Below are positions 37,015 through 38,468 of a DNA stretch of 64,000 nucleotides, piece after piece. Position 1 is the first letter of the stretch. Each line of letters begins with the position of its first letter. A program made the position numbers and the translations under genes. The notes beneath the pieces are model-generated. The model saw only the letters and a list, made by a program, of their open reading frames with translations. It had not been told where the DNA came from and did no database searches. This DNA is from Escherichia coli (lineage in GTDB: Bacteria > Pseudomonadota > Gammaproteobacteria > Enterobacterales > Enterobacteriaceae): assembly GCF_003334765.1 (NCBI RefSeq), contig NZ_QOWT01000002.1. The stretch is one strand, 5' to 3'.

Positions 37015-37893
37015 TCAGTAGTTATGTACTGAAGGAGGCAATTCTTTATTCTTAAGTCTCATCCATGCGGAAAGATTCGTTGGTCCGTCTGGCTCATTAA
37101 TATCAACATCTCGTGTGTGGTTTATTAAAACGTCTCTCGCCATTCCGATAACATACGAGAATTCATGACCGTAGTCGTAGCATCTGCCGGAATAGTTCGA
37201 TTGAATTTGTTTTAGCGCCGGATACAGTTCGCGGAATAATGCCTGTGAGCGGTTGGCATAATCCCATAACCATACAAGGCTGTTTGCTTCTTTTGCAGAA
37301 AGCTCGTTGGTTTTCTTCTCTTGTTTGCCAATGAACTCACCTTCAAGCACTACCCTGTGGATGTACTCTACGGCCAGCGGGATTTGTTCAATTGAAAGTT
37401 CATCAATGCTGTCAATACCAAAACGCTGATGAACCATATTGTATGCATCGTCATAGCGAAGTCCTTTCTTTCCTACCAGCATGTTTACTGCATCGCGTAG
37501 CGGTGTTCTTTCCTCAACAGTGGTTTTCTTTCCTTTTACATACTCGCCATGTTTGCGAATTGAAGGCAGAACTTCTGCTGTTACCCACTTGCGGAATTTG
37601 TGCGGGACTGAACCTTTATTGACTGCATCGCGGCAGCGCAGAACCAATGTATACATACCTGATTCGCTCACAATGCTTAGATTCTGCTCACCACCAAGGG
37701 TGTAACTTAAAGTTACTCCCTTTTCATCGTCATCAAGTGCAGTAAGCGCCTTGCGTGAGTTAGTCAAATCTAAAGCATCACAAACATCTTTAGCTACAAA
37801 CCACGGCTCACCGCACTTGTTGATGACGCGGATTTCACTGTCGCCGAATTTGAAGATGGTGAAATCGTTTTGTGCCTTTGCTATACTTTTCAT
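37015..37893 (-). CDS. ant: antirepressor Ant
   Basis: 292 aa, N-terminal Bro-N/AntA-like domain ([14 protein letters not shown]); immediately downstream of arc. Confidence 0.8.
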
Positions 37894-37961
37894 GTCAATA
37901 TTTCCTAATCCGATTTGTTGATGCCGAAGCCCTGACTGTTACAGCAGTTGGGGCTTCAACT

Positions 37962-38123
37962 TTACGCACCAATGCGCCCTTCCTTCTTAAAGCTTTCCAT
38001 TACTCGCTGATAAATCTCAGAATTAACAGACCGACCATTTTCTTCCGCCACCTTGCGTACCAAATCCAATACTTCTTTAGGCCACCGCAAATTGAACTGT
38101 GGCATTTTGCTCATTCCTTTCAT
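37962..38123 (-). CDS. arc: Arc repressor
   Basis: 53 aa from MKGMSKMPQFNLRWP, ribbon-helix-helix; ORF open to 38186. Confidence 0.9.
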   Translation of the reverse strand: MKGMSKMPQFNLRWPKEVLDLVRKVAEENGRSVNSEIYQRVMESFKKEGRIGA

Positions 38124-38137
38124 GTTCACCTCACAAT

Positions 38138-38186
38138 ATAGGTCCACGGTGGACCTATTGAGAATATAGTAGAGTGCTTCTATCAT
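38138..38186. promoter_or_regulatory. immI control region: Mnt operator and Arc operator overlapping Pant/Pmnt
   Basis: palindrome ataggtccacggtggacctat (38138-38158) and atagtagagtgcttctatcat (38166-38186) between divergent arc and mnt. Confidence 0.8.
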
Positions 38187-38213
38187 GTCAATACACTAAC
38201 TTGGAGTGATGGC

Positions 38214-38468
38214 ATGGCTAGAGATGATCCGCACTTTAACTTCCGTATGCCTTTGGAAGTAAGAGAAAAATTGAAATTAAGAGCCGAGGCTAACGGAAGG
38301 TCAATGAACTCTGAGTTATTACAAATCGTTCAGGATGCACTATCAAAACCATCACCGATTACAGGATATCGCGACGAAGCTGAACGCTTGGCTGATCAGC
38401 AGGCTGAGCAGTTCAAGGCTATAGTGTTTGAGACACTTAAAAAGATTTATGAAAAGGATTTGAAATGA
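38214..38468 (+). CDS. mnt: Mnt repressor
   Basis: 84 aa, MARDDPHFNFRMP ribbon-helix-helix N-terminus. Confidence 0.9.
   Translation: MARDDPHFNFRMPLEVREKLKLRAEANGRSMNSELLQIVQDALSKPSPITGYRDEAERLADQQAEQFKAIVFETLKKIYEKDLK

Follow-up and report, generated by a model that had tools for sequence, protein, structure and literature searches.

Why does a prophage that has lost its head genes carry an apparently intact antirepressor switch, and does this combination tell anything about the role of the remnant? The question arises at positions 37015-38468 of a 64,000-nucleotide stretch of an Escherichia coli genome (assembly GCF_003334765.1, contig NZ_QOWT01000002.1), hereafter the window, where a sequence-only reading had recognised an intact immI switch of the P22 type, retained in a headless prophage. 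The locus is very probably a P22-type immI (immunity I) module, complete in sequence, in a Lederbergvirus-like (P22/Sf6/Kapi1-like) E. coli argW prophage that was disabled by a single internal deletion. Sequence identities, domain architectures, an RNA family match and a deletion map are the grounds for this assignment. Between positions 36978 and 38468 are found the ant terminator, ant, the promoter Psar with the sar RNA, arc, the Mnt operator Omnt, the Arc operator Oarc, the overlapping promoters Pant and Pmnt, and mnt. At the level of the sequence, the switch is therefore intact, as had been claimed. The part coding from ant to mnt corresponds to 37015-38468, and the module begins at 36978 if the terminator is counted. 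It is flanked by a homologue of gp16 (39230-41071) and by the tailspike gene (34548-36914), which is the late-operon site, bordered by ejection gene 16 and tailspike gene 9, known as the 'ant moron' position (PMC2629481).

The regulatory core lies between arc, on the minus strand, and mnt, on the plus strand, which are divergent around two palindromes found exactly as first quoted. Omnt, ATAGGTCCACGGTGGACCTAT (38138-38158), is a perfect 21-bp palindrome with a central G. Oarc, ATAGTAGAGTGCTTCTATCAT (38166-38186), is also an exact match; it occupies the Pant spacer and lies over the Pmnt -10 element. For each of the two sequences, the chance expectation was 0 matches in 100 shuffles. Both operators had been likened to those of P22, and alignment to the P22 record (BK000583) upholds this fully for one and partly for the other. 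Oarc, labelled O-arc in the P22 record, is identical in the window, P22 and epsilon34, and the Pant/Pmnt core is also that of P22. In Omnt, both half-sites (AGGTCCAC/GTGGACCT) are unchanged but 2 of the 21 positions, namely a single base in the flank and the centre of the dyad, differ from the P22 operator, which reads ACAGGTCCACCGTGGACCTAT on the same strand. Apart from these two positions, everything from Omnt up to and including the mnt start codon is P22-identical. The window form is a common natural variant. Of 80 viral contigs with the operator pair, 28 have it, which makes it the second commonest form, and either centre base occurs freely; the form of P22 itself, found in 4 of the 80, is a minority among natural sequences with this pair. 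Pant (TTGACA, 17-nt spacer, TATATT; 38163-38191, minus strand), which drives arc and ant, scored 11/12 in a promoter scan and matches the annotated arc/ant promoter of the P22 record. Pmnt (TTGAGA, 17-nt spacer, TATCAT; 38158-38186, plus strand) scored 10/12. Both are P22-identical and they overlap face to face, with Omnt downstream of the Pant -10.

The two repressors have diverged from P22 to different extents. arc (37962-38123, minus strand), the first gene on the Pant transcript, encodes a 53-residue ribbon-helix-helix repressor (counted from MKGMSK) with 52 residues identical to P22 Arc, the sole change, R16K, being common to epsilon34. At the codon level, four differences from P22 are synonymous and one is non-synonymous. 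The protein matches PDB 1ARQ/1PAR (E = 5e-31) and its beta-strand PQFNLRW is that of P22. mnt (38214-38468, plus strand) encodes an 84-residue repressor with a ribbon-helix-helix N-terminal half and a diverged C-terminal tetramerisation helix; it matches PDB 1MNT (E = 1.2e-38) and the C-terminal-domain entry 1QEY (27.9 bits). Just three of its 18 changes relative to P22 (M14L, F22L, V49I) fall within residues 1-50, which are thus identical at 47 of 50 positions, and the N-terminal, DNA-reading strand ARDDPHFNFRMP is unchanged. The remaining 15 changes all lie in the C-terminal third, after residue 53, so that tetramerisation is assumed.

ant (37015-37893, minus strand) and its terminator had both been reported, and both are present. 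The terminator, detected by a terminator scan at 36978-36997 on the minus strand, is made of an 8-bp G+C-rich stem followed by TTTTTTT, and sits where the ant terminators are annotated in P22 and epsilon34. The designation of ant as a P22-type antirepressor needs qualification. The 292-residue protein combines a Bro-N domain (residues 20-110) with P22_AR_C (residues 192-264) according to Pfam, whereas P22 Ant is built from P22_AR_N (14-125) and P22_AR_C (200-272). It is therefore P22-type in its C-terminal half only. The C-terminal 174 residues are identical to P22 Ant at 147 positions and to epsilon34 Ant at 154, and the N-terminal 120 or so residues are unrelated to either. Residues 1-277 match phrog_245, 'anti-repressor Ant' (E = 5.6e-112), and the protein differs from the Ant of the viable phage Kapi1 at a single residue out of 292 (A42D), with 15 synonymous codon changes for this one non-synonymous change. 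At the DNA level, the ant cassette is about 97% identical to copies in O157:H7 genomes.

The foreign N-terminal part gives some substance to the idea that a Bro-N/P22_AR_C Ant would not be a working antirepressor of CI/C2 here, and would have another role, for instance Bro-N DNA binding, or none. None of the solved structures matches Ant by sequence, which fits this idea, and so does part of what was observed with the Stx phage Phi24B. The Ant of this phage has 82% identity to the C-terminus of P22 Ant over the last 104 residues, and its deletion changed induction modestly and left superinfection unaffected (PMC3064807). Yet the same deletion lowered pR' induction to about 30-55% of the wild-type level, a defect that could be complemented (PMC3064807). 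In Phi24B, ant lies upstream of the late terminator and not in an immI module. The high identity of the C-terminal 174 residues to two P22-type proteins and the extension of the phrog_245 match over the whole protein also argue for antirepression. Moreover, the same control by Arc, Mnt and sar accompanies such a gene in at least 22 viral contigs and would be pointless for an inert one. We therefore regard the loss of antirepressor function as unlikely.

The sar antisense RNA (37895-37961, plus strand) is a part of immI that was absent from the sequence-only reading. It matches Rfam RF00262 at full length (1-68) and scores 65.6 bits, the gathering threshold being 43 (E = 1.1e-12). Lying on the strand opposite to ant, the RNA begins 2 nt away from the ATG of this gene and covers its ribosome-binding site. 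Two hairpins make it up: the 5' one has in its loop the complement of the Shine-Dalgarno sequence of ant, and the other is a 14-bp terminator hairpin. The minimum free energy is -28.3 kcal/mol (z = -6.0). When the variants were folded individually, the two-hairpin fold was common to all cassette types although the sequences of the arms differ. A column-wise count of covariation was dropped because in the MAFFT alignment the 5' hairpins of the P22 and window types were out of register by one column. A candidate Psar (GTGAAA, 17-nt spacer, TG-TATACT; 37859-37887, plus strand; promoter scan 9/12, extended -10) sits within the first ant codons. In the alignment, P22 Psar shares its -10, TATACT, whereas its -35, with 4 of 6 consensus positions, belongs to a swapped segment.

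This swap can be delimited by comparison with related phages. In the alignments, ant and the 5' half of sar form a cassette of the Kapi1/Stx-phage type, joined to an arc-operator-mnt block of the P22/epsilon34 type, and the joints are the conserved sar terminator and the inter-domain linker of Ant. Kapi1 (vB_EcoP_Kapi1, MT813197), which also integrates at argW, has 97.9% DNA identity with the window from the N-terminal part of the tailspike gene through ant to the sar terminator, but beyond it carries a different Arc-family pair, without the P22 Omnt and Oarc sequences. Among the phages compared, the Salmonella phage epsilon34 has the closest arc-operator-mnt block, with K16 in Arc and the same Oarc, whereas its Ant has a P22-type N-terminal sequence, its Omnt differs in flank and centre, and the cargo beside mnt is also different. 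The Salmonella phage P22 itself (BK000583, X01916) has in common with the window the gene order, the position between genes 16 and 9, Oarc, the Pant/Pmnt core, the sar RNA, the ant terminator and the P22_AR_C domain of Ant. It differs in the sequences of the sar 5' hairpin and of the ant ribosome-binding site, and sieA/orf59a are replaced in the window by two other genes. immI thus appears as a mosaic below the level of the gene, in which the N- and C-terminal domains of Ant, the 5' hairpin of sar, the arc-operator block, the Mnt tail and the cargo reassort. In agreement with this, the identical operator pair occurs in at least 80 viral contigs, and a Bro-N Ant adjoins it in 22 of 80; the exact combination of the window is found in at least six.

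The two genes replacing sieA/orf59a follow mnt on the plus strand. The first (38465-38800), its start codon and the stop codon of mnt overlapping as ATGA, encodes a Rap1a-family periplasmic protein (Pfam PF18602, E = 1.3e-14; phrog_3870), named 'Rap1a/Tai family immunity protein' in RefSeq; a literature search combining Rap1a and prophage found no relevant report. The second (38816-39205) is a 129-residue ORF with a signal peptide that matches phrog_2651 (E = 2.3e-60) and has no match in Pfam. A search of NCBIfam returned no family for Ant, Arc, Mnt, the Rap1a-like ORF, the 129-residue ORF, the excisionase or the tailspike.

How would such a switch work? Every binding, repression and antirepression activity considered here is one that we infer by carrying over the mechanism described for P22 (PMC2629481, PMC3121763). 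In the resting cell, Mnt made from Pmnt would sit on Omnt, just downstream of the Pant -10, thereby keeping Pant off and arc and ant silent. The Pmnt transcript would also carry the Rap1a-family gene and the second secreted-protein gene. If Pant fired, Arc and Ant would be produced together, and Arc bound to Oarc, in the Pant spacer, would then shut both promoters. The sar RNA, transcribed from Psar, would pair with the ribosome-binding site of ant and limit Ant translation. Finally, Ant would bind repressors of the CI/C2 type non-covalently and inactivate them. Expression of the mnt homologue of Kapi1, a phage with the same Ant, was not detectable in lysogens (PMC12922286); hence the regulation of the window cassette need not follow that of P22. 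The presumed target of Ant in cis is the CI/C2-type repressor of the remnant itself (45420-46136, plus strand; 238 residues; phrog_4, E = 3.4e-49). This protein has a LexA-like C-terminal domain, residues 36-231 giving a sub-threshold match to the NCBIfam LexA model (35.8 bits for a curated cut-off of 110.95). A view of ant and mnt as an addiction-like pair was considered and rejected: loss of the element removes both genes, so that only point mutants of mnt would be counter-selected.

The prophage that carries the module is about 20.6 kb long. Its left attachment core, CTGCAGGGGACACCAT (16 bp, 32331-32346, plus strand), corresponds to the 3' end of argW (tRNA-Arg-CCT, 32271-32345) and is repeated as attR at 52949-52964. 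An integrase of the IntS type (32471-33664), a name also present in the RefSeq annotation, and an excisionase (52675-52875) lie just inside the two cores. The defective argW prophage CPS-53/KplE1 of E. coli K-12, with the same attachment site, an IntS-type integrase and a TorI-like excisionase, is likewise a degraded P22-like element; it is not known to carry an immI module.

Between the att cores, the description as headless proved accurate: the ORF inventory from 32.3 to 53.0 kb is without genes for terminase, portal, scaffold, coat, head completion, packaging, lysis and Q. The deletion can be placed within a single ORF (42208-43590, minus strand), in which the N-terminus of a primase/helicase (residues 2-228) is fused in frame to a complete gp7 (residues 230-458), with matches to phrog_239 and phrog_598 and a junction at about 42908. 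Matches of E. coli genomes to the whole-prophage query break at query positions 10658/10659. The missing block is seen in the argW prophage of strain SJC33 (NZ_CP080255), which has the same att site and IntS integrase, is apparently complete, and keeps gp14, needle, gp10, gp4, coat, scaffold, portal, terminase and lysis genes as well as Q; its homology with the window ends 5 bp upstream of the gp7 start codon. The pac site of P22 lies within the terminase genes. The idea that the remnant is mobilised as a satellite was rejected, as the packaging region, with the terminase genes, is deleted. Several late genes survive around the module. The tailspike gene (minus strand), directly downstream of the ant terminator, encodes an intact 788-residue protein with a P22-type head-binding N-terminus, and RefSeq homologues of its product are named 'phage tailspike protein'. 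The gene of the gp16-type ejection protein (minus strand, 613 residues) is also intact and matches phrog_770 at full length (E = 7.4e-280). The gp20-type ejection protein gene (41068-42197, minus strand) is broken into two ORFs in different frames. One (41280-42197) corresponds to positions 1-277 of the 509 of phrog_917 and the other (41068-41337) to positions 421-509; relative to SJC33, the stretch missing from the middle lay between 9-bp repeats. Some decay has thus taken place since or around the deletion.

Does the persistence of immI in such a remnant carry meaning, as the word 'retained' had suggested? Here the data do not support the earlier claim. The SJC33 prophage is 100% identical to the window over 36900-39250 (2351 bp, including immI, the Rap1a-family gene and the second ORF) and 99.35% identical over 36577-41377, the receptor-binding part of its tailspike being different and the acetyltransferase absent. 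In addition, the tailspike, gp16 and gp7, useless without a head, are as intact as immI. Among 5426 complete E. coli genomes, 22 contain at least 80% of the module. None of the complete genomes holds 80% or more of the whole prophage (window 32250-53050) in one place, and no second case of the deleted form was found among them. Since no complete genome shares the deletion and other useless genes are intact, the intactness of immI is most simply explained by a recent deletion rather than by selection.

It may nevertheless be imagined that selection keeps the module, Mnt silencing the Pant of superinfecting P22-like phages and Ant triggering or synchronising co-resident lambdoid prophages. Targets for repression in trans do exist, given the wide distribution of the operator pair. 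Cross-talk between Ant and other repressors is itself plausible. P22 Ant is active against the repressors of four phages, P22, L, lambda and 21, and Salmonella offers documented cases of such cross-talk, in which the antirepressor of one Gifsy or Fels prophage can inactivate the repressors of others (PMC3121763). The Gifsy antirepressors, unlike the window Ant, are small proteins under the control of LexA and not of Mnt, Arc and sar. The differences of ant and arc from their relatives are mostly synonymous (15:1 and 4:1), but this excess arose in functional phages and not in the remnant, and with zero differences from SJC33 in immI there has been no time for selection to be tested. Together with the survival of the other useless genes and the absence of the deleted form from the other complete E. 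coli genomes, this makes maintenance by selection improbable. Still less credible is a switch cryptically broken by the two Omnt changes, the new Psar -35 (GTGAAA) or the 15 substitutions in the Mnt tail, since this Omnt form is common and its centre base free, the sar fold is conserved, and the identical module, window-like Mnt tail included, occurs in the apparently complete SJC33 prophage and in viral contigs of 25-42 kb.

The initial observation is correct but ordinary. Few phage regulatory modules have been studied as thoroughly as immI, and an identical copy resides in SJC33, so that the discovery value is small. Still, a defective prophage can carry a complete antirepressor circuit, which is relevant to the prediction of inducibility and cross-induction in polylysogenic E. 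coli.

A last point concerns the new surroundings of ant. The deletion from primase to gp7 has placed PR-cro-nutR-cII-O-primase'::gp7-gp20'-gp16 on the same strand, directly upstream of arc-ant-tailspike, and in this layout no Q or late promoter is needed between PR and arc-ant. The N-like gene (46892-47188; phrog_271) looks intact, as do nutR (45069-45111, minus strand, downstream of cro), with a boxA-like GCTCTTTAAC and the boxB hairpin TCCCGC-CGAAAT-GCGGGA, and nutL (46744-46784, plus strand), with an identical boxB. It is tempting, if speculative and on balance doubtful, to imagine that the deletion rewired Ant: cleavage of CI in the SOS response would release PR transcripts, which, antiterminated by N, would run into arc-ant and induce co-resident lambdoid prophages in trans. 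The control of Pant by Mnt would then be bypassed and the mnt operon transcribed antisense, and the remnant would be a DNA-damage-triggered inducer, functionally like FsoA of Fels-1 acting on Gifsy-2.

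Two palindromes taken as the P22 Mnt and Arc operators had been quoted between divergent arc and mnt genes. Both are found there, at 38138-38158 (Omnt, ATAGGTCCACGGTGGACCTAT) and 38166-38186 (Oarc, ATAGTAGAGTGCTTCTATCAT), no match being expected by chance. arc lies on the minus strand (37962-38123, with MKGMSK as its start) and mnt on the plus strand (38214-38468). A longer 74-aa reading of the arc ORF was rejected, its start falling within the Arc operator. The antirepressor and its terminator are present as claimed: arc is followed by ant (37015-37893, minus strand, 292 aa) and, 18 nt beyond the ant end, by a stem-loop with a T-run (36997-36978). 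A component absent from the sequence-only reading was found with Rfam, the sar antisense RNA (37895-37961, plus strand; full length, 65.6 bits vs a gathering score of 43). Pant (TTGACA, 17 nt, TATATT) and Pmnt (TTGAGA, 17 nt, TATCAT) score 11/12 and 10/12, respectively.

In an alignment of the control region with the annotated records of P22 (BK000583) and epsilon34, the window is identical to P22 from Omnt to the mnt start codon, save two positions in Omnt. The P22 operator reads ACAGGTCCACCGTGGACCTAT on the same strand; the window differs from it at one flank base and at the dyad-axis base, so that both half-sites (AGGTCCAC/GTGGACCT) are those of P22. No change from P22 is seen in the Arc operator, Pant or Pmnt. 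Arc is identical to P22 Arc at 52/53 positions, its single change, R16K, being also found in epsilon34 Arc, and it matches the solved Arc structures with E = 5e-31. Mnt matches 1MNT (E = 1.2e-38). It differs from P22 Mnt at 18 amino acids, just 3 of them within residues 1-50, and has the identical N-terminal strand, ARDDPHFNFRMP. The other differences are located in the C-terminal tetramerisation region, where the 1QEY match is weak.

Over its last 174 residues, Ant is identical to P22 Ant at 147 positions and to epsilon34 Ant at 154; its first ~120 residues are related to neither. According to Pfam, P22 Ant is made of P22_AR_N and P22_AR_C, whereas the window protein carries Bro-N (aa 20-110) in its N-terminal half, together with P22_AR_C (aa 192-264). 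It shares 291/292 residues with the Ant of Kapi1 (MT813197), a viable E. coli phage, and the two ant genes show 15 synonymous and 1 non-synonymous codon differences. Kapi1 DNA is 97.9% identical to the window between the tailspike N-terminus and the sar terminator and diverges beyond; its Arc-family pair is different and P22 operators are absent. Because the match ends at the sar terminator and the remainder resembles P22 and epsilon34, the immI module of the window is a mosaic, in which ant and the 5′ half of sar are of Kapi1 type, and arc, the operators and mnt of P22/epsilon34 type. The joints are the conserved sar terminator and the Ant inter-domain linker. All sequence determinants known from P22 are present, and the parts foreign to P22 are found also in viable phages or apparently complete prophages. 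The sequence-only reading was correct in its observation and largely right in its interpretation; the identity of Omnt and the domain type of Ant need correction. In the Kapi1 record (L003, 3494-3559), the deposited ant start is placed 22 codons ahead of MKSIAK, the conserved start, and the annotated gene thereby crosses the sar region into the end of the arc homologue. This is probably a start-codon miscall.

The window sar folds into a 6-bp 5′ hairpin followed by a 14-bp terminator hairpin (MFE -28.3 kcal/mol, z = -6.0), and the loop of the 5′ hairpin (UUUCCU...) is complementary to the ant Shine-Dalgarno sequence. P22-type arms (GUUGGU/ACUGAC) and window-type arms (UCAAUA/UGUUGA) form one architecture, into which two further sar variants also fold. 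Thus, the hairpin persists although both of its arms have changed. Psar has a conserved -10 (TG-TATACT), and its -35 (GTGAAA) is inside the swapped segment.

By analogy with P22 (PMC2629481; PMC3121763) and with the Mnt and Arc literature, a working of the switch may be proposed. In the resting cell, Mnt made from Pmnt would occupy Omnt and cover the Pant transcript start, keeping arc and ant silent; the Pmnt transcript would also bear a Rap1a-family gene and a second secreted-protein gene. Firing of Pant would produce Arc and Ant together. Arc would then bind Oarc, which lies in the Pant spacer and overlaps the Pmnt -10, and shut both promoters, while pairing of sar with the ant ribosome-binding site would limit Ant translation. 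Ant would bind CI/C2-type repressors and inactivate them. The two signal-peptide genes of the mnt operon (38465-39205, plus strand) stand where P22 has orf59a/sieA. The start codon of the first and the stop codon of mnt overlap (ATGA). The product of the first belongs to the Rap1a family (PF18602, E = 1.3e-14), whose members are immunity proteins against type VI secretion amidases; in Pfam, nothing matches the second (129 aa, phrog_2651). Nothing relevant on Rap1a and prophages was found in the open-access literature. This cargo could serve lysogenic conversion or superinfection exclusion.

No GenBank phage record spans at least 80% of window 36900-38500. At least 80% of window 36900-39250 is present in 22 of 5426 complete E. 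coli genomes, strain SJC33 (NZ_CP080255) being 100% identical across it. Viral contigs were scanned with a degenerate pattern for the operator pair, which gave at least 80 loci. Among the 80 matches listed, Omnt has the TC form in 48, the TG form of the window in 28 and the CC form of P22 itself in 4; Bro-N Ant lies beside these operators in 22, and a Rap1a gene lies 3′ of mnt in ~13, almost always beside a Mnt tail like that of the window. At least 6 viral contigs have exactly the combination of the window (TG operator, Bro-N Ant, window-like Mnt tail, Rap1a gene). Every combination of sub-modules was found among viral contigs, which is consistent with PMC2629481, where the region is called a high-flux "ant moron". 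The same Bro-N/P22_AR_C ant (~97% DNA identity) is found in O157:H7 strain FRIK944 (NZ_CP016625; L085, 3041-4696), where it has a divergent Arc-family pair of its own and interrupts a lambdoid tail-gene cluster between genes L and K. The C40 peptidase gene there, which is K-like, is frameshifted; this locus is an immI-like cassette in a siphovirus-type prophage.

The host genes on both flanks are those of the E. coli argW locus: fadJ-fadI-fadL-mlaA-yfdC-argW on the left, named via the SJC33 annotation, and on the right what we take, by eye, to be dsdC-dsdXA-emrYK-evgA. A 16-bp core at the 3′ end of argW (32271-32345) is repeated at 52949-52964, enclosing an element of ~20.6 kb with an IntS-type integrase and a TorI-like excisionase. 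A second 16-bp piece, identical to the argW T-arm (TTGCAGGTTCGATTCC, 32316-32331), is present at 52640-52655, ~300 bp inward of the attR core; it lies on the upstream side of the excisionase gene and is separate from the core repeat of the acceptor stem. It could have been left by an earlier integration or belong to attP. From the right, the minus strand carries cro, nutR, cII, an O-like replication gene and a fusion ORF (42208-43590), whose first 228 residues are a primase/helicase N-terminus and whose residues 230-458 are a complete gp7 ejection protein. Beyond it come broken gp20, intact gp16, the immI block and an intact tailspike. At the same site, SJC33 has an apparently complete prophage, with gp14, needle, gp10, gp4, coat, scaffold, portal, terminase, lysis genes, Q and nin genes that the element here lacks, which bears out the description of the prophage as headless. 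Homology to SJC33 ends 5 bp upstream of the gp7 start codon, and whole-element matches in E. coli break at that same point (~42908). gp20 (41068-42197, minus strand) is split into two ORFs in different frames and, compared with SJC33, has lost a stretch between 9-bp direct repeats. This loss suggests slippage or a microhomology deletion, separate from the large one. The prophage is therefore defective, its defect consisting of one large deletion and a second lesion in gp20.

The module is indeed retained in this deleted prophage. Recent deletion is the simplest reading of its intactness, because immI shows zero differences from the SJC33 prophage, tailspike, gp16 and gp7 are intact too, though useless without a head, and none of the complete E. 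coli genomes has the same deleted form. Nothing in the sequence data points to special preservation of immI. The immI here is a known system, and the defective prophage that carries it is ordinary and strain-specific.

P22 Ant inactivates the repressors of L, lambda and 21 as well as that of P22, and in Salmonella prophage induction is coupled by trans-acting antirepressors (PMC3121763). By analogy, cross-talk may legitimately be proposed, and for the Bro-N Ant of the window it would be putative. An Ant with the C-terminus of P22 Ant, from Stx phage Phi24B, had only a partial effect on induction and left superinfection unaffected (PMC3064807). In Kapi1 lysogens, expression of the mnt homologue is not detectable (PMC12922286). 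On the minus strand (39230-45319), the deletion joins the early-right operon (cro, cII, O, primase′) to gp7 within one reading frame and sets it upstream of gp20′, gp16 and then arc-ant-tailspike, all on one strand. N (46892-47188), nutL (46744-46784) and nutR (45069-45111) look intact, and terminator-like sites on the minus strand between the early-right operon and arc-ant are weak only. Since the boxA-like sequence and boxB hairpin are identical in nutL and nutR, N-antiterminated PR transcripts might reach ant without Q. That SOS cleavage of the remnant's CI would thereby lead to Ant expression independently of Mnt is speculation from gene order, and rather improbable.

The tailspike region (33857-36914) encodes a P22-type head-binding N-terminus common to SJC33 and a different receptor-binding body. 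It adjoins a hexapeptide-repeat acetyltransferase gene (33857-34528, plus strand), absent from SJC33 and possibly a conversion gene that modifies the O antigen and is paired with a tailspike to match.
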